Source of the DNA: a bacterium CG10_46_32 | Lineage (GTDB): Bacteria > Patescibacteriota > Patescibacteriia > UBA2169 | Reading direction: 5' to 3' | Length of the DNA stretch: 64,000 bases | Assembly: GCA_001889965.1 (NCBI GenBank) | Contig: MOEI01000012.1 | Location: forward strand, 1,170-65,169 | Shown here: piece by piece, positions 27,242 through 60,700 of the stretch | How the letters are laid out: the number at the start of each line of letters is the position of its first letter | Position numbering within the stretch: position 1 is the stretch's first letter | Notes under the pieces: generated by a model | Databases searched by the model: none | What the model was told of the DNA's origin: nothing | What the model saw: the letters and a program-made list of their open reading frames with translations, nothing else | Program-made: the position numbers and the translations under genes

Positions 27242-29218
27242 CTAGCGAACAATAGAATCAACTAATATAGTAAACAGGAGTCTAGGCTCGCCGCGGCTTT
27301 CTTTGAGGCTGCGGTCCAAGCGAGCAAGCGCATGGTACGTGGCCACAAGGCGCGCGATAGTAAACCGTGTTGCTTGCTTCCGAGTTTTTTGAACCACAAA
27401 CGGATTCAGCTTAAGCTGCGAGGCAAGGGATGCATCAGACCCTTCGGCCCCGTGCAATGCAAGCAGTAATCGGGTCTGCCTAATAATCATTCCCAAAAAC
27501 TGCTGAGGCGCTTCACTTGCTTCAAGTTGTGCATCCACCAAACTAAGCGCGGTTTTTTTGTCGCCACTCGAAAGCGCGTCCACAAACTTCCAAATATTCT
27601 CTTGGCTTCCTGCGTGCACCATAGTGCGCACCATTTGTTCGGTAATGGGATTCTTTCCTGCGGCCGCGAGCTTGGCAACCTCGTTGCGCGCCCGCCACAC
27701 GTCCGCGCCAATCATGCTACCAAGCAGCGCGCTAGCGCGAGGCTCAATTGTAGCATGCAGCTCTTGTGCATACTTCTGGATTCTATCGGGCATTTCAGAT
27801 TCAGAAGGCTGGGCAAACTCTTTGGAGTATTGCTCCTTTGCAAGCCGAGACACAAGCTTTAAACGCTTGTCGCACGCGCCGGCGTGGAACACAATGAGCG
27901 TGGTGTCTACTGAAAGCTCATGAGTATCCAAAAAATCCGTAAGTCCGTCGCGGATGTCCTTGTCTTCTAAAACCCCTTTTGCAACAACTAATTTTTTGGA
28001 GCTAAACAATCCTCCACCTGTCAAAAACGCAGCAAGCTGTTCCCAGCTTCCCTCAGATGCTTCAAACAACTCAACCATGCCGCCTGATTGCGCATGCTTT
28101 TTGTTGAACTGGTCGGTTAATTTTTCCAGGTATTGACGCGACGAGTACGTGTCTTCCCCGTGAATCAAAATAAGCATGCGCCTTCCAATTTGTTTTTGAA
28201 TGGTTAAACTTCTGCAATGCACCAAAACCCCCAAATACGATTGCAAAGATTGATTAAATGATTCTGTCCCAATAAAACCATGCCGCAACTGCTCCTTTTT
28301 GACGCGCATCTTCTTGATAATCCTGTGCTTCGTTTTGGTGCGGATAACGCGATAGTGCGGAAGCGCGACATATCCCAAAAAATCAATCCCCTGATTAATT
28401 TTACGCACGAAAACAGTATCGTCATGAATCTCCAGTTTTAAGTTTTGATCCAAGAATAGCCTAGCACGCGCCGCGCTATCTTTCAAATAATCAGGGTCTC
28501 GGTGCAACATCACAAAATCATCACAATACCTGACATAATACTTTTGGCATAACGAATGCTTGACGTATTGGTCTAATTCATTTAAATAAACGTTTGCAAA
28601 CAACTGACTTGTTACATTGCCCAAGGGAATCCCTTTTCCGTGCACTATTGAAAAACTGCCTATGATATCCCCAATAAGACGCAATGCGGCATCATCCTGA
28701 ATAGTTTTTTGCATAATCCCGCGCAACACGCCGTGGTCAACCGTATCAAAAAACTTTTTAATATCACAAGTAAGCGCGTACGCGGTTTTGGTAAAATTAT
28801 CAGTTGCCTTGCGCGCGAACCGCTCAAGGCGGCTTACTCCCTTGTGCGTCCCCTTGCCAATCCTGCACGAATACGAATCAAAAATAAAATGCGGATCAAA
28901 CTCATGGTATAGTACCCTAAACACTGCCTGGTGCATAAGCCTGTCCCGCACATCGGCTTTATGTATGTGCCTTAATTTCGGATCGCGTACATAAAATGAA
29001 CTATACGGCCCATGCGCATAGCGCCCCGTCCGAAGGTCGTCACGCAAGCCAAATAGAGCATCCTCAAGCGCAAACTCAAATTCCCGCACATCTTGCTTTT
29101 TCCGCTTGCCTCGCCTAAACTCATACCATGCGGAGAAAAGATTCTCCAGGCTTATAATCCTCTCAAACAAGCTATTAACACCAGTATGCCCGCCCCCCCC
29201 CCAACGGAGTGGTTCCAA
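27242..29218 (-). CDS. DGR-type reverse transcriptase (28178-29218) fused in frame to a full-length DNA polymerase III delta subunit HolA homologue (27242-28177)
   Basis: RT part: NLFSAWYEFRRGKR...KADVRDRLMHQA...SYSCRIGKGTH...IPLGNVTSQL...YVRYCDDFVM (DGR Brt-like motifs including LGNxTSQ and YxDD). From MLILIHGEDTY onward it is HolA-like (…FVDALSSGDKKTALSLVDAQL…). There is no stop codon between the two parts. The paralogous RT at 58243-59268 ends at the equivalent position. Confidence 0.75.
   Translation of the reverse strand: MEPLRWGGGGHTGVNSLFERIISLENLFSAWYEFRRGKRKKQDVREFEFALEDALFGLRDDLRTGRYAHGPYSSFYVRDPKLRHIHKADVRDRLMHQAVFRVLYHEFDPHFIFDSYSCRIGKGTHKGVSRLERFARKATDNFTKTAYALTCDIKKFFDTVDHGVLRGIMQKTIQDDAALRLIGDIIGSFSIVHGKGIPLGNVTSQLFANVYLNELDQYVKHSLCQKYYVRYCDDFVMLHRDPDYLKDSAARARLFLDQNLKLEIHDDTVFVRKINQGIDFLGYVALPHYRVIRTKTKHRIIKKMRVKKEQLRHGFIGTESFNQSLQSYLGVLVHCRSLTIQKQIGRRMLILIHGEDTYSSRQYLEKLTDQFNKKHAQSGGMVELFEASEGSWEQLAAFLTGGGLFSSKKLVVAKGVLEDKDIRDGLTDFLDTHELSVDTTLIVFHAGACDKRLKLVSRLAKEQYSKEFAQPSESEMPDRIQKYAQELHATIEPRASALLGSMIGADVWRARNEVAKLAAAGKNPITEQMVRTMVHAGSQENIWKFVDALSSGDKKTALSLVDAQLEASEAPQQFLGMIIRQTRLLLALHGAEGSDASLASQLKLNPFVVQKTRKQATRFTIARLVATYHALARLDRSLKESRGEPRLLFTILVDSIVR
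29193..29202. repeat. Poly(C)10 homopolymeric tract at the divergent avd/RT junction of DGR-1
   Basis: cgcccccccccc; sits in the RT 5' codons (WGGGG) and just upstream of the avd start. Confidence 0.9.
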
Positions 29219-29562
29219 TTGTCCATGCCATTACTCATGTGTACAAGGAATTGTACCAGCTTGGGAAAAAACTTCCAAAACAAGACCGATACGGCATGCA
29301 CCGGTGCATTACCGAAGTATGCCTCAAAAGCCTCAAGCTTGCGATAGAGGCGGCTTTGTCCGTGAAACAGGAAAAAGCGCCTATCCTAAAAAAACTGCGG
29401 GTGGAAATTGGCGTGCTTAAGCAATTGGTGCGCCTGCTCTATGAATTAAATCGTATCCCACAAAAGGCCTATTTCGGACTTGAACAACAACTCTGTGAAA
29501 TATCCAAAATGGCCGGTGGATGGAGCAAGTATGCTGATATGCACAAAACAAAAGGAGCATAA
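29208..29562 (+). CDS. avd: Avd-like accessory variability determinant of DGR-1, encoded on the strand opposite RT/TR/VR
   Basis: 117 aa, GTG start; LPKQDRYGMHRCITEVCLKSL ... CEISKMAGGWSKYADMHK parallels Bordetella bAvd (IPRKHGVAREMFLKCLL ... AEVGRILGSWIARVNRK). Confidence 0.65.
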
Positions 29563-29574
29563 TCGCTCCTTTTG
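29550..29574. promoter_or_regulatory. Hairpin immediately 3' (TR-RNA sense) of TR-1
   Basis: aaaaggagc-ataatc-gctcctttt overlapping the avd stop; position matches a TR-proximal priming or terminator structure. Confidence 0.35.
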
Positions 29575-29576
29575 CA

Positions 29577-29694
29577 GAAACTATCGCACGAGCACGCAGG
29601 TTCGCGTTGGCATTCTGCGGGTGGTTCCAGTTCAGGTTCAGCGCGCCGCCGTTCCAGTTCACGTTCGGCACATGGCCATCCGAATTGCGGGAAC
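29577..29694 (-). repeat. DGR-1 template repeat (TR)
   Basis: 118-bp copy of VR-1. On the minus strand the variable positions are A, and the translation is Asn-rich (NVNWNGGALNLNWNHPQNANAN). Confidence 0.85.
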
Positions 29695-29885
29695 TCGTGT
29701 AATGCGCGGCTTCATCCATTGCTCCGGCAACCTTTTACAAGGCCTCCTGTGTTTACCAATACTTTGTTGGCTGTGTTTTGAGTCTCCGCGAAAAGCGTAC
29801 ACTCACCAAAGCCGGGCACGTAGTTTCTTGAATATAGCAAATCGTTATCCCGTGGGACCGATTGTAGTAGCCATGTGTAATAATA

Positions 29886-29922
29886 CAAAAAAAGCCCCCG
29901 TCTGCGCAAGGCAAACGGGGGG
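29886..29922 (-). terminator. Intrinsic terminator after DGR-1 target gene
   Basis: gcccccgt...acgggggg hairpin plus A7 (U-run on the minus-strand transcript). Confidence 0.5.
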
Positions 29923-29956: not shown

Positions 29957-30688
29957 TTAGGAAACTACCGCACGAGCACGCAGGCGCGCGCCGGCACCCT
30001 GCGGGTAGTGCCAGTGCAGGCTCAGCGCGCCGCCGAACCAGTCCACGCTCGGCACATGGCCATCCGAAACGCGGGAACCACTACAGAGTGTGATACTCTT
30101 TACATCCAGATGGCCCCCTTTCTCATCGTTGTACTTCAGCTCGTGGATGACGCGCTCCAGCGCGGTTTCGGTCGCGATCTCGCGCTCTGCTATGTCCTCG
30201 GCAGACAGGTTCTTGAGTTCCTCGTCTGCCTCCACCCGGTCGCGCACGCGGATTGCGTACGAGCCAGTCGCGGAGTCGCGTTCATTCCGGCTGATGGCGC
30301 TGTCCGTGTTATCCCAGTAGCACCTAACCGGAAAACGCTCCTCACACGCATGGAGGAGCCGAGAGAGCTGCAATCCGTGGGCGATTATGAGCACCTTGTT
30401 AAAACCGGGCTTTGGTGCCGGCAAGGCAAGGTGCGAGAAACCAACCCCCATGCCGAGTACGCGCCCGTAGAAGTCCTCCCACTCCGTCCGGACATCGCTC
30501 TGCAGAATCGCCTGCATGCGGTTTTTGTCTATGCGGCCGTTCTGGACCTGGGCCCAGAACTCTTTCATCTGTCCTGGCGTCGGCGGCCCCGATGAGCCTC
30601 CCTCTTGCTGAACACGCACATCTGCGCAGTCAGTAGCATGCAATGCGGTCATCGCACACCTCCTATGGAAATAGGTTAAAAAGTGCAT
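29957..30688 (-). CDS. DGR-1 target protein with C-terminal variable region (CLec/FGE-like ...VDWFGGALSLHWHYPQGAGARLRARAVVS)
   Basis: GC-rich ORF whose last ~39 codons are VR-1, ending at the stop codon; N-terminal start uncertain. Confidence 0.7.
   Translation of the reverse strand: MHFLTYFHRRCAMTALHATDCADVRVQQEGGSSGPPTPGQMKEFWAQVQNGRIDKNRMQAILQSDVRTEWEDFYGRVLGMGVGFSHLALPAPKPGFNKVLIIAHGLQLSRLLHACEERFPVRCYWDNTDSAISRNERDSATGSYAIRVRDRVEADEELKNLSAEDIAEREIATETALERVIHELKYNDEKGGHLDVKSITLCSGSRVSDGHVPSVDWFGGALSLHWHYPQGAGARLRARAVVS
29961..30078 (-). repeat. DGR-1 variable repeat (VR)
   Basis: Matches TR-1 with about 18 mismatches, all but one at TR adenines (TR A -> VR C/G/T). Confidence 0.85.
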
Positions 30689-57576: not shown

Positions 57577-58008
57577 TTAAAAATATTTCTTCAAAAAATC
57601 CGATGGCTCCATAATCTCAATGGGTAGCTGCAGTTTGAGCAATGCCTCATTCCTTGAAAAGTGCCGCCGATCCAGTGTGAGCAGGACATCCGCGCGCGCG
57701 AGCACGGCTCCGACAAGAATCGGCACGTCTTTACCCGGCACATAGCGGGCCGCAATACTCGCCTCCGACGACACAAACTCAAAAGGATGTTGGATGATGT
57801 AATTACCTTGCAGGATGTTTTGATAGTGCGCAAAAAGTTCCCGCTCTCTAAACGATTGCCTGATGTTTCGCTCCGCTTCCCGGAGCACGTGTTCGGTTGT
57901 GATAACAGTTATCGAACCGGCTCTCGCCATGCGCAACACAAAACCAGATCCCCCGTGCGGGGACCTGGCTGCTGCAAAAAATACGTTTGCGTCCACAAAC
58001 ACGTTCAT
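57577..58008 (-). CDS. vapC: PIN-domain toxin (VapC-like)
   Basis: N-terminal MNVFVDANV...; conserved acidic residues of the PIN fold; 143 aa. Confidence 0.75.
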   Translation of the reverse strand: MNVFVDANVFFAAARSPHGGSGFVLRMARAGSITVITTEHVLREAERNIRQSFRERELFAHYQNILQGNYIIQHPFEFVSSEASIAARYVPGKDVPILVGAVLARADVLLTLDRRHFSRNEALLKLQLPIEIMEPSDFLKKYF

Positions 58009-58220
58009 GGCGCAGCTTCTAGAGTACGCAAAAGATTCTCTATTCGTTCTCTGGTCTCCAAATCAAGCTCATCCGCCTGCTCAAATTCCCGAATCCGTTC
58101 AGGTGTATATATCTCAATGCCTGCATCCGTCGCTTCTGAACGCTTAAAAATCTTCTCGTAGAGCGTTGCCTGTTGTTTTAATATTTCGTACTGATTTTTG
58201 GGGATGGTAACAGTATCCAT
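58005..58220 (-). CDS. Putative antitoxin (VapB-like) upstream of the PIN toxin
   Basis: About 70-aa ORF (start taken at the internal MDTVTIPKNQYE) overlapping the PIN gene start by 4 nt. Confidence 0.5.
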   Translation of the reverse strand: MDTVTIPKNQYEILKQQATLYEKIFKRSEATDAGIEIYTPERIREFEQADELDLETRERIENLLRTLEAAP

Positions 58221-58242
58221 AATACCACCAGTATAGCAAAAA

Positions 58243-59268
58243 TTAAACCGCAAGGCAACCAAATGTATTCGTGCGGCGGCTCATAGTATTCACTGCCTGT
58301 GTTAATCCGAATGCATTCCCGTGTTGCAATAAACCAACATACGATTGGACTGATGCGTCCCGCGCCTCTTGAGAACCAAGCCTCATAAGCATTCTGCGTT
58401 TTGATGCGGTCCGTAACACGCAATGATCCGGAAAATGCACCCAGCCCAAAAAATCCACTCCGGAAGAAAGGGTTTTGATAAAAACTTTGTCCGGATGCAG
58501 CGCAAGGTTGAGTTCATGCTCTAAAAATTCCGATATTCTTAGAAGCTGATTACGAAGCCGTTCTTTGTCATGAGATAACATCACAAAATCATCAGCATAA
58601 CGAATGTAGTATTTGGCCTTGAGCTTGTGCTTCACAAATCGGTCAAACTTGTTCATATACACATTAACCAATAGCTGCGAGGTGAGATTGCCAAGAGGCA
58701 GTCCCGCGCCTTTTTTGGTTGAGTGGAAACTGGAGACAATTTGTGAAATGAGCCACCTAATATCGCGGTCCGGCAGGTAACCTTTAATAATCTCGATGAG
58801 AATGTTTTGGTCAATTGAAGCAAAAAACTTTCTAATGTCGCACTTAAGTACCCACACTGTCCGGGTATGATTGCGAGACGCCTTGCGGGCAAACGCCCGA
58901 AACCGGTTCATGGCTCTGTGCGTTCCTTTGCCTAACCGGCACGAGTACGAGTCCGCAATAAATGTCTTGTCAAAAAACGGATATAATACCCGGTATAACG
59001 CATGGTGCAGCAGCCGATCCCGCACGCTGGCTTTGTGAATGTTTCTCGGTTTTGGGTCTGAGATGTTAAAAGCGTAATAAGGCGCGTGCTGATAGGTTTT
59101 GTTTGCCAAATCACGGTGGAGCGCAAAGACATTGGTCATTAAATCGCGTTCAAATTCCTGCACATCCCGGCGGTTGCGCTTGCCGCGGATAAACTCCTGC
59201 CACGCGAGAAGCAGATTATCTACAGAGATGATATACTGGTAACTGCCATTAAAAATAACCTTGCCCAT
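58243..59268 (-). CDS. DGR-type reverse transcriptase (stand-alone, 341 aa)
   Basis: NLLLAWQEFIRGKR...KASVRDRLLHHALYRVL...SYSCRLGKGTH...LPLGNLTSQL...YIRYADDFVM; paralogue of the RT part of 27242-29218. Confidence 0.85.
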   Translation of the reverse strand: MGKVIFNGSYQYIISVDNLLLAWQEFIRGKRNRRDVQEFERDLMTNVFALHRDLANKTYQHAPYYAFNISDPKPRNIHKASVRDRLLHHALYRVLYPFFDKTFIADSYSCRLGKGTHRAMNRFRAFARKASRNHTRTVWVLKCDIRKFFASIDQNILIEIIKGYLPDRDIRWLISQIVSSFHSTKKGAGLPLGNLTSQLLVNVYMNKFDRFVKHKLKAKYYIRYADDFVMLSHDKERLRNQLLRISEFLEHELNLALHPDKVFIKTLSSGVDFLGWVHFPDHCVLRTASKRRMLMRLGSQEARDASVQSYVGLLQHGNAFGLTQAVNTMSRRTNTFGCLAV

Positions 59269-59665
59269 ACTATGCCGTATTCTACCCCCCCCCCCGACAA
59301 TTTTGCCAGTATTGCAAAAGGTGAAAAGCGCGTATCTCTTGTGGTACGGCTTTTACCAAACGATTCCAAAGAATCACAGGCACTCGCTCGGCAAAAAAAT
59401 TGACACCTTGTTTGTGGAGATCGTTGAGGCGATCGCGACTGCTTGTTTTTTGGTGCGCGCCGAAAAAATCCCGTACGTCCGCAGGGCAATCCAAAAACTG
59501 GATACGCTAAAAATATTTTTAATGATCCTCTGGGAAACAAAATCTTTGGACAACAAAAAGTATGCCGCGCTTTCCGAGCCGCTGGATGAAATAGGCCGCA
59601 TGCTCGGCGGCTGGAACGGCCAGCTTGTAAAACAAAACTCCCCCGCAAAAGCGGGGGAGAAATGA
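59261..59665 (+). CDS. avd: Avd-like accessory variability determinant of DGR-2, on the strand opposite RT/TR/VR (true start probably TTG/GTG near 59308-59329)
   Basis: …KSAYLLWYGFYQTIPKNHRHSLGKKIDTLFVEIVEAIATA…LDEIGRMLGGWNGQLVKQN matches the bAvd/23S-IVS four-helix-bundle pattern. The ORF as drawn reads through the poly(C) tract (PPPP). Confidence 0.6.
   Translation: MPILCRILPPPPTILPVLQKVKSAYLLWYGFYQTIPKNHRHSLGKKIDTLFVEIVEAIATACFLVRAEKIPYVRRAIQKLDTLKIFLMILWETKSLDNKKYAALSEPLDEIGRMLGGWNGQLVKQNSPAKAGEK
59285..59295. repeat. Poly(C)11 homopolymeric tract at the divergent avd/RT junction of DGR-2
   Basis: ccccccccccc lying 17 nt upstream of the RT ATG (minus strand) and upstream of the likely avd start. 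Confidence 0.9.
59638..59659. promoter_or_regulatory. Hairpin immediately 3' (TR-RNA sense) of TR-2
   Basis: ctccccc-gcaaaa-gcgggggag, 12 nt from the TR-2 boundary; inside the avd 3' end. Confidence 0.35.
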
Positions 59666-59671
59666 AGAGAG

Positions 59672-59793
59672 TTGCGAGGACGAGAGCGGGGTTGCTGGCA
59701 TTCCAGCCGTTGTCGAGCCAGTTGTAGTTCCAGTTCCACCTGTTGCCGTTCCAGTTGAGGTAACGGACATAGAGGTTGTCGTCCGGGTCGCGA
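59672..59793 (-). repeat. DGR-2 template repeat (TR)
   Basis: 122-bp copy of VR-2; the minus strand has A at every variable position; Asn-rich translation (YLNWNGNRWNWNYNWLDNGWNASNPALVLAT). Confidence 0.85.
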
Positions 59794-60038
59794 TTTGCAT
59801 AACGCGCCTCCTGTGCCACTGCCCCGCGAATACTCTTGGGGCTGTATCGTATTTGGCATCGCAATGCCCTAGCGCGCCATGCCAAGTATCTTCATTTTTT
59901 GAAGTTTCTGCATGCGCCGCGCTATTCCAAACTCTTGATCGGGAATACTCCGGACGCATGGATACTGGATTCGGCAGCGGCCAGCCGTAGCCAACCACAT
60001 ATTCGCCTAATACCGTTTCTATTGTAACAAAAATAAGA

Positions 60039-60075
60039 GGCCCGCACCATTCGCTATGAACGAATGATGCGGGCC
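60039..60075 (-). terminator. Hairpin/terminator about 70 nt downstream of VR-2
   Basis: ggcccgcaccattcg-ctatgaa-cgaatgatgcgggcc (14-bp stem, 1 mismatch) followed in minus sense by a T-rich run. Confidence 0.45.
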
Positions 60076-60142
60076 TTGTCGCGCGAGTTCTAAGGGCTAA
60101 GGCCAAAGATCCAAAAGATCTAAGAACCTAAGCTCGAAGTAC

Positions 60143-60700
60143 TCAACTTGCGAGGACGAGAGCGGGGTTGCTGGCACGCCAGCCGTCGTCGAGCCAGTAG
60201 CAGCCCCAGCGCCACCCGTCGCCGCCCCAGTCGAGGCAACGGACATAGAGGTCGCCGCCCGGGCCGCGATAGATAGTGCCCCAGAAGAACACATACTTGC
60301 CCTTCCACGCCTCGGGAATGAGGTGCGGATTGGCGAGCAGGTAGTCCAGCACGTTCGCGTTGAGTACGTGCCGGGACTTGAGCTCCTCGCGGAGTTTGTC
60401 GCCCTTGATGGAGCCGCAATTTTGCTCCTCTGTGAGGTAAAGCGCGACCTTGGCGGGGTCCCACTCCAACTGGCCGCCCTTGACGTGCTGTTCCACGCTC
60501 CAGCTCTCGGACAGGAACGGATCGGCGTCGCAGTCAATGACGTGCCTCTTGGGTACGATTTCGGCGCGGCCGTGAATCAGGTCCAGAATCCCGGGCCAGT
60601 TATTGAACTGGCCGAGAAGCGTCACGTCGTGAGGCGTGAGGAGCTCGGACTCCAACCTCTCCATCAACTGGTGGGTCTGACCTTCTGAATAAGAAGACAT
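60143..60700 (-). CDS. DGR-2 target protein with C-terminal variable region (...YVRCLDWGGDGWRWGCYWLDDGWRASNPALVLAS)
   Basis: 185-aa GC-rich ORF; its last ~40 codons are VR-2, ending at the stop codon. Confidence 0.7.
   Translation of the reverse strand: MSSYSEGQTHQLMERLESELLTPHDVTLLGQFNNWPGILDLIHGRAEIVPKRHVIDCDADPFLSESWSVEQHVKGGQLEWDPAKVALYLTEEQNCGSIKGDKLREELKSRHVLNANVLDYLLANPHLIPEAWKGKYVFFWGTIYRGPGGDLYVRCLDWGGDGWRWGCYWLDDGWRASNPALVLAS
60148..60270 (-). repeat. DGR-2 variable repeat (VR)
   Basis: About 19 mismatches to TR-2, all at TR adenines. Confidence 0.85.

Follow-up and report, generated by a model that had tools for sequence, protein, structure and literature searches.

Two diversity-generating retroelements (DGRs) lie in the 64,000-nt window analysed here (contig MOEI01000012.1, positions 1,170 to 65,169, forward strand) from bacterium CG10_46_32, a metagenome-assembled genome (MAG) of the candidate phyla radiation (CPR)/Patescibacteria, and each carries a long C/G homopolymer where the 5′ ends of avd and of the reverse transcriptase (RT) gene meet. 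We propose that this tract, lying within coding sequence, quite probably acts as a slipped-strand phase-variation switch; at some loci it would control Avd, and in one subclass Avd and RT together. We also lean towards the broader proposal that most Patescibacteria DGRs (clade 2 of Roux et al.) possess such a built-in repeat switch, which would make targeted hypermutation stochastic and heritable. A preliminary description of this DNA had already read the tract as a functional slipped-strand switch of RT and/or Avd, and that reading is supported by conservation of the repeat, turnover of its motif, variation in its length and scattered reading frames among relatives. The switch would act mainly on translation, as a frame switch, with a possible extra effect on spacing in the RT promoter of DGR-2.

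The tracts were found exactly where they had first been described, C10 at 29193–29202 in DGR-1 and C11 at 59285–59295 in DGR-2 (window coordinates throughout), both at avd/RT junctions. They read as C on the plus strand, which encodes avd, and as G10 and G11 on the minus strand, which encodes RT. No other C/G run of at least 9 occurs in the window, where 9-mer C/G runs gave 5 overlapping hits against 0.15 expected and 0 of 100 shuffles reached 5. DGR-1 carried G10 in five independent contigs from four samples (L004–L008), all encoding identical proteins; for DGR-2, contigs encoding identical proteins had G11 three times and G10 once, the last in L002, a strain with two nearby single-nucleotide polymorphisms. 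Because these lengths recur in independent contigs, we do not regard the tracts as an accident of assembly.

Both DGRs have the same gene order: RT (−), tract, avd (+), template repeat (TR, −) and variable repeat (VR, −), the last at the 3′ end of the target gene (−). RT-1 (28177..29238, −) and RT-2 (58243..59268, −; 341 aa from ATG 59268) match RVT_1, are 46% identical to each other and belong to the DGR clade of RTs, RT-2 having thousands of Patescibacteria homologues with LPLGNLTSQ and YADD motifs. The plus-strand open reading frames (ORFs) between TR and RT match bAvd (PF22296) at 6e-12 for avd-1 (29186..29562) and 1.3e-12 for avd-2 (59272..59665), their extents being set by the frame simulation and, for avd-1, the antisense ATG described below. 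Paired repeats of 118 nt at 86% identity (TR-1, 29577..29694; VR-1, 29961..30078, in target ORF 29957–30688; all minus strand) and 123 nt at 85% (TR-2, 59672..59794; VR-2, 60148..60270, in target ORF 60143–60700; all minus strand) complete the two systems. Since the majority of mismatches fall at minus-strand adenines of the avd-proximal copy, we took that copy as TR; VR ends 4–5 nt from the target stop codon in both.

Profile matches and repeats upheld the strand assignment of the preliminary description, with avd on the plus strand and RT, TR, VR and target on the minus strand. Its view that a divergent avd departs from canonical DGRs had to be given up: in the parts of Wu et al. 2018 (PMC5758913) available to us, the B3 architecture, TR-(avd)-RT, makes up 90% of the DGRs in their CPR set and has the same gene order and strands as both DGRs here, each of which combines an RT, an A-biased TR/VR pair and an opposite-strand avd between TR and RT. 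A divergent avd is already known; the junction repeat is, as far as we found, apparently new.

To related DGRs the same architecture extends. We surveyed 80 species-representative and 80 metagenome loci with an RT alignment, all from Patescibacteria and with RTs 56–71% identical to RT-2; tract lengths were taken from assemblies and runs were counted on the RT strand. Avd was divergent and directly upstream of RT at 146 of the 149 loci with enough sequence, and a junction repeat was present at ~140 of ~150. At 124 loci it was a poly-G of at least 7 between the avd and RT starts, with a modal length of 10 (7, 6 loci; 8, 14; 9, 32; 10, 41; 11, 25; 12, 3; 13, 2; 14, 1). Other loci had (GGCT)6–8, (GTTC)9, (AG)15, (GA)7–20, (CT)10 or (GT)12 instead, and two further loci had assembly gaps at the junction. 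Dominant repeat units were of 1, 2 or 4 nt, never 3, in the surveyed loci, and all motifs are stop-free in every frame on both strands. Where the G run is replaced, the repeat nature is kept and the sequence is not, so it is the hypermutable repeat that is conserved and not a motif. A conserved hypermutable repeat with a turning-over motif is the signature expected of a contingency locus, and the junction repeat appears to be a widely conserved, apparently undescribed feature of CPR DGRs.

The turnover of motifs also argues against a Shine–Dalgarno (SD), quadruplex or protein-binding role. That the G run works as a specific sequence, whether as an SD-like site, a G-quadruplex, a binding site for RT/Avd or a priming site for DGR RNA, is very unlikely. 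The RT-strand run is indeed always G-rich (703 kb of sequence from relatives holds 120 G, 1 C, 31 A and 31 T runs of at least 8) and keeps a fixed distance of 5–10 nt to the Avd N-terminal codons, but (GA)n, (CT)n, (GT)n, (GGCT)n and (GTTC)n take its place, and a single run of 7–14 G cannot form an intramolecular quadruplex. TR has its own terminator-like hairpin, which probably leaves the tract outside TR RNA, and SD motifs are hardly used by the host. We had considered the tract as an SD for RT or avd and rejected it because the host is almost without SD, the motif turns over and the avd mRNA would carry poly-C.

Scarcely credible is the notion that the repeat has no function and is a mutational by-product or assembly artefact. 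Homopolymers do break assemblies, and at L078, L083, L007 and L179 the junction repeat falls at an N gap or a contig end; but ~140 independent assemblies, drawn from many projects, have it at this one position, it is kept across the whole range of RT identity to RT-2, and G runs are essentially confined to the junction, with 0.15 expected per window. As the repeat breaks short-read assemblies, DGR surveys on short contigs will under-sample it.

Among 8 groups of near-identical loci, defined by flanks ~98–100% identical or by the same RT protein, repeat length differed in 4: the DGR-2 group had 11/10/11/11, and there was 11 versus 8 between L028 and L101, 9 versus 10 between L142 and L144, and 11 (four times) versus 12 in the P0074 group. 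Variation across strains, which the preliminary description had made a test of the switch, was borne out in these groups but not for DGR-1 itself, which was G10 in all five contigs.

We classified 129 repeat-bearing loci by the presence of an ATG after the repeat. In type A (86 loci, DGR-2 among them) the repeat is followed by an ATG belonging to RT; in type B (43 loci, including DGR-1 and most (GA)n loci) no ATG lies between the repeat and the RT body. One genome contains both designs, type B at 29190–29240 and type A at 59260–59310: the DGR-2 repeat lies in avd only, next to a putative RT −10 box, and the DGR-1 repeat lies in both ORFs.

The conserved Avd N-terminus (LPVLQK...) begins 5–10 nt after the tract, its first conserved codon is often no start codon, and an in-frame stop is frequently found just upstream of the tract. 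A start at the conserved Leu after the tract was considered and dropped: the codon is TTG at only ~60% of loci and otherwise TTA, CTG, CTA or CTT, and some loci are without a canonical start for 30 codons. We adopted an upstream ATG instead. It lies antisense to the RT His codon that stands five residues ahead of the conserved I-I-S, CAT on the RT strand being ATG on the avd strand. This codon was CAT rather than CAC at 58 of 60 type-A loci, compared with CAT 745 : CAC 488 for other RT His codons and with T-ending 344:150 for other early two-fold RT codons (p = 8e-7). From the antisense ATG the avd-strand frame was open to the repeat at 90/90 loci, against 13/90 and 20/90 for the other frames, and codons giving antisense stops were absent (0/652 versus 4.4% elsewhere, p = 6e-13).

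A TGnTATnnT box ends 7 nt upstream of this ATG (of 90 loci: T−16, 86; G−15, 65; T−13, 85; A−12, 76; T−11, 83; T−8, 88), and RT synonymous codons fit such an extended −10 box (GAT 50 : GAC 4; ATC over ATT). Because the antisense ATG frame is open to the repeat at every locus and the extended −10 box lies at 7 nt, we place the avd start upstream of the tract. The preliminary description had put the tract at the junction, in or near the start of avd: the position stands, but the tract appears to lie inside the avd ORF, with the real ATG upstream, and in DGR-1 inside the RT ORF as well. Its statement that the DGR-1 tract falls in the first RT codons agrees with the mechanical ORF from TTG 29218, which reads ...LRWGGGGH. 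In DGR-2 the tract ends 16 nt before RT ATG 59268.

At the nucleotide level, (ATG)ATATCAT is conserved at most loci (for example, L035 and L037) across the RT codons just ahead of and at I-I-S, often as the 10-bp palindrome ATGATATCAT. We interpret it as the putative opposite-strand extended −10 box of avd; it may alternatively be a protein-binding site. SD motifs are rare in the window, and many genes have a TATAAT-like box, often TGGTATAAT, 6–9 nt before the ATG (for example, upstream of 10189, 13545, 33518, 43611, 45529 and 55683), which suggests that leaderless mRNAs are widespread in this organism. We infer that avd is expressed from a leaderless mRNA starting inside the RT 5′ coding region, and that the repeat is translated within an N-terminal extension of Avd, such as MNELNLTHTANSTPPPRLLPVLQK in L011.

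Around the type-A tract the RT strand also shows promoter-like features. The RT ATG lies exactly 13 nt after the tract at 22 type-A loci, and TAnnnT directly follows the tract at 37 of 114 loci (32% versus 4% expected), the pattern that a leaderless RT mRNA would be expected to leave. Distances from a TGGCAA element to TAnnnT peak at 17–18 nt, the −35-like match being weak (3–4 of 6). DGR-2 has a −10-like hexamer, TAGAAT (59279..59284, −), directly 3′ of the G tract and 10 nt before the RT-2 ATG, and a possible −35-like element, TGGCAA (59303..59308, −), antisense to Avd Leu-Pro codons at the start of the conserved avd-2 body (59303); the spacer measures 18 nt with G11 but 17 nt with G10, at which avd is in frame. 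With the common arrangement of an ATG 13 nt after the tract, avd-in-frame lengths give spacers of 14, 17 or 20, as verified on L169.

These features invite a purely transcriptional account, in which the tract is an untranslated promoter-spacer homopolymer, as at porA and opc, that tunes RT or overlapping divergent promoters. The box next to the tract, the 13-nt distance to the ATG, the spacer peak and the closeness of host −10 boxes to ATGs are all in its favour, but we judge it unlikely. The −35-like match is poor, repeats of 20–36 nt such as (GA)n and (GGCT)n cannot serve as a 17-bp spacer, ~43 type-B loci are without an ATG after the repeat, there is no overall length compensation, and a spacer model leaves unexplained why the avd-strand ORF from the upstream ATG is kept at 90/90 loci. 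The weakness of the −35 assignment is also why we treat a promoter effect as secondary to the frame switch, alongside which it may operate in type A; a promoter-spacing component is poorly supported.

Type B extends the coding argument to the other strand. An RT-strand ATG lies upstream of the repeat, often 53–54 nt away, antisense to an Avd Trp-His pair (CAT 15:1), and is preceded at 7 nt by TAGAAT, TACAAT or TATAAA at several loci. Its frame was open to the repeat at 27 of 33 loci, against 2/33 and 4/33 for the other frames. TTA, CTA and TCA, the three codons that give antisense stops, made up 2.0% of avd codons 1–16 in type B; their share was 8.2% for type A (p = 5e-9) and 4.9% for the remaining codons of the type-B genes (p = 5e-4). 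Upstream of the type-B repeat, openness of the frame of the RT body was not enriched, so a non-ATG start in the assembled frame is not how RT is read. On their opposite strands the two extensions line up codon to codon, so that one repeat length puts avd and RT in frame together. In DGR-1 a promoter-like site, TTGGAA-17-TGgTACAAT (29250..29278, −; a consensus match only), lies 11 nt upstream of RT-1 ATG 29238, within opposite-strand avd-1 codons.

Reading frames behaved as a switch at the DNA level predicts, being scattered where the repeat is present and fixed where it is lacking. Avd was in frame with the upstream ATG at 17 of 81 poly-G loci (binomial p = 0.018 versus 1/3) and at 28 of 85 type-A loci, with frame offsets 0/+1/+2 of 14/22/22, and type-B RT was in frame at 10 of 37; at loci with no repeat or with G6 or shorter, avd was in frame in 8 of 9 (Fisher p = 0.0017 versus 28/85). 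In-frame enrichment, sought as evidence of coding, was not found at the repeat-bearing loci in any of the three sets, which is why we base the coding argument on conservation of the upstream ORFs.

The genes remain intact and conserved although their consensus sequences are mostly out of frame, as would also be expected if polymerase stuttering or ribosomal frameshifting restored the frame in a fixed fraction of products, making the tract an attenuator and not a heritable switch. Long homopolymers are slippery for both polymerases and ribosomes, Pro-Pro-Pro stalls ribosomes, and the DGR junction resembles dnaX, prfB and insertion-sequence (IS) elements in having a slippery run between start codon and protein body. 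Constitutive recoding of this kind is nevertheless improbable. Programmed sites hold one offset across homologues, unlike the three found here; the motif is not conserved, and in several lineages the homopolymer gives way to di- and tetranucleotide repeats, on which DNA slippage acts (we know of no established recoding on such repeats). Furthermore, length differs at the DNA level between near-identical strains, and repeat-less loci are simply in frame.

In simulations of tract length on the window sequence, gain or loss of one base toggled the ATG-initiated frames, and weaker TTG or GTG starts were in frame at the assembled lengths. For DGR-1, lengths of 8, 11 and 14 are the only ones that bring into frame both the RT-1 ATG (29238 or 29226) and avd-1 ATG 29186, which lies antisense to the RT-1 His codon CAT; at C11 (or C8, C14) ATG 29186 joins the Avd body as MPAPPPNGVVPIVH..., 125 aa. 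At the assembled G10, one base short of G11, the only in-frame starts are TTG 29218 for RT and GTG 29209 for the avd-1 body. For DGR-2, ATG 59272 joins the Avd-2 body only at C10 or C13 (MPYSTPPPTILPVLQKV..., 130 aa); the assembled C11 is one base longer than C10, the length found in L002, and has only TTG 59261 in frame for avd. The window may be in an ‘off’ state, or one of low expression from the weak starts. CPR DGRs of clade 2 have lower-than-average activity in metagenomes (Roux et al. 2021, PMC8144416), which is compatible with many populations being mostly ‘off’.

Several points weigh against the proposed frame switch. An in-frame fraction of 21–33% is also what a non-coding tract would give, and some loci, such as L171, have ATGs in two frames. 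The weak starts in frame at the assembled lengths (TTG 29218, GTG 29209 and TTG 59261) mean that ‘off’ may be ‘low’. At L050 the G run is interrupted (GGCGGCGGGG), and the extension still reads ...STPPPLLPV via CCG codons, a hint that the run of Pro may matter at the level of the protein, for example for EF-P-dependent translation. Tract length and flanking spacer showed no overall compensation (rho −0.06), with a weak relationship in class 1 (rho −0.36, p = 0.049). DGR-1, at G10 in five contigs, shows no visible instability at the consensus level; short-read assemblies can miscall homopolymer length, and the variant L179 sits at a contig end. The surveyed loci are phylogenetic relatives, and our p-values overstate their independence.

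We envisage the following mechanism. In this CPR DGR lineage avd and RT would stand head to head, their 5′ ends overlapping on opposite strands, with start codons close behind −10-like boxes that suggest leaderless or near-leaderless mRNAs. The avd ATG would lie antisense to an RT His codon (in DGR-2, immediately upstream of the RT ATG), with an extended −10 box 7 nt upstream of it, set within RT codons, and the avd ORF would cross the repeat, poly-C as Pro-Pro-Pro, into the four-helix Avd body. In type B, RT would start at an ATG antisense to avd codons and cross the same repeat as Gly-Gly-Gly; in type A, the repeat would lie between the −10-like box and the weak −35-like element of the RT promoter, where a length that puts avd in frame would also give a 17-bp spacer. 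Gain or loss of one unit at replication would toggle the frame of Avd, and that of RT as well at type-B loci. Mutagenic retrohoming, which requires the RT–Avd complex, would then occur only in the subpopulation with an in-frame length. Some leaky expression may arise in addition if RNA polymerase stutters, or ribosomes slip, on the run. We infer the transcription start sites, translation of the extensions, switching rate and effect on hypermutation from sequence.

In most Patescibacteria DGRs, two apparently leaderless genes would overlap antisense at their 5′ ends, with the repeat embedded there, and the start codon of each would be a His codon of its partner read on the opposite strand. Cells could diversify while ‘on’ and lock in a useful variant by slipping ‘off’.

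Parts of this arrangement have counterparts in known systems. In Neisseria meningitidis, porA (poly-G) and opc (poly-C) are switched by a promoter-spacer homopolymer, a G/C run of 9–13 between −35 and −10, and in Haemophilus influenzae TA repeats between the divergent promoters of hifA and hifB serve two divergent genes with one repeat. As at porA and opc, the type-A DGR tract abuts a −10-like box; unlike there, the conserved upstream avd ORF would make the main effect translational, the −35 is only weakly recognisable, and long di- and tetranucleotide repeats misfit a spacer role.

A close likeness is to the intragenic poly-G/C contingency loci of Campylobacter, Neisseria, Haemophilus and Helicobacter (for example, PMC8437040, PMC5084427 and PMC3546556), which share with the DGR junction a short-unit repeat near the ORF 5′ end, a unit that is no multiple of 3, length polymorphism among close strains, scattered frames, and repeat-less homologues fixed in frame. 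The DGR repeat differs from them in that it would switch a targeted-hypermutation machinery and not a surface or modification gene, and in that the type-B repeat lies in two antisense-overlapping ORFs and would switch both; the DGR host is also an uncultivated CPR bacterium in which switching is deduced from its genome. In acting on a higher-order switch gene with many downstream phenotypes, it recalls the simple sequence repeats (SSRs) of phasevarion DNA methyltransferases (PMC5909438, PMC7383803), but its downstream effect would be sequence diversity in a target protein and not epigenetic regulation.

Literature searches combining DGRs with homopolymers, SSRs, phase variation or promoters returned nothing on the junction repeat; an earlier description may exist in Paul et al. 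2017 (Nat Microbiol) or in a 2026 preprint. The available sections of PMC5758913 contain no junction repeat, 5′–5′ ORF overlap or upstream avd start, and the terms ‘divergent’ and ‘antisense’ are absent from its main text.

How DGR mutagenesis is regulated is largely unknown, and a system that rewrites ligand-binding proteins must stop in order to keep a good variant. If our proposal is right, CPR bacteria bet-hedge at the level of the mutator itself through slipped-strand switching of avd/RT, which could help to explain the lower activity of CPR DGRs in metagenomes (PMC8144416). Tract phase should then correlate with VR diversity in metagenomic reads, and reconstitution of a CPR DGR would require choosing an in-frame tract length. 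The starts of avd and RT would also be mis-annotated in public records, with avd short or on the wrong strand.

In the public gene calls, avd-2 is uncalled and avd-1 is short, 107 aa from GTG 29239. On the RT strand, a 161-aa ORF (59374–59859) in DGR-2 and a 100-aa ORF (29417–29719) in DGR-1 are called instead, and these span TR and the avd antisense. As avd is called short or not at all, its annotation in these MAGs is unreliable.

Hairpins follow TR and VR in both DGRs. Between the avd-1 stop and the 3′ end of TR-1 lies AAAAGGAGC-n6-GCTCCTTTT (29550..29573, no strand assigned), read from the sequence and missed by a hairpin/terminator scan; with A and T runs on its flanks, it resembles a terminator acting in both directions. 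A terminator-like hairpin with a T run, CTCCCCCGC-TTTT-GCGGGGGAG (59638..59659, −), lies directly 3′ of TR-2 within the avd-2 3′ end. Downstream of VR-1 is a GC-rich hairpin with a T run (29895..29921, −), and downstream of VR-2 an 18-bp hairpin with a T run (60038..60076, −). Given terminator-like hairpins after both TR and VR, TR may be a short separate transcript, and the avd/TR hairpin may terminate both strands.

RT-1 is without its own stop, and its frame enters the ATG at 28176 of holA (DNA polymerase III delta; 27242–28176, −), reading ...KQIGRR and then MLILIHGED. The resulting 658-aa RT-HolA ORF (27242–29218, −) was called by gene callers in all related contigs, and holA was beside RT at 0 of ~160 other loci examined. 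An Rfam search of the window found four tRNAs and nothing else. Directly downstream of RT-2 (57577–58262, −), a PIN-domain ORF of 143 aa overlaps a small upstream ORF of 85 aa, the two resembling a VapBC-type toxin–antitoxin pair.

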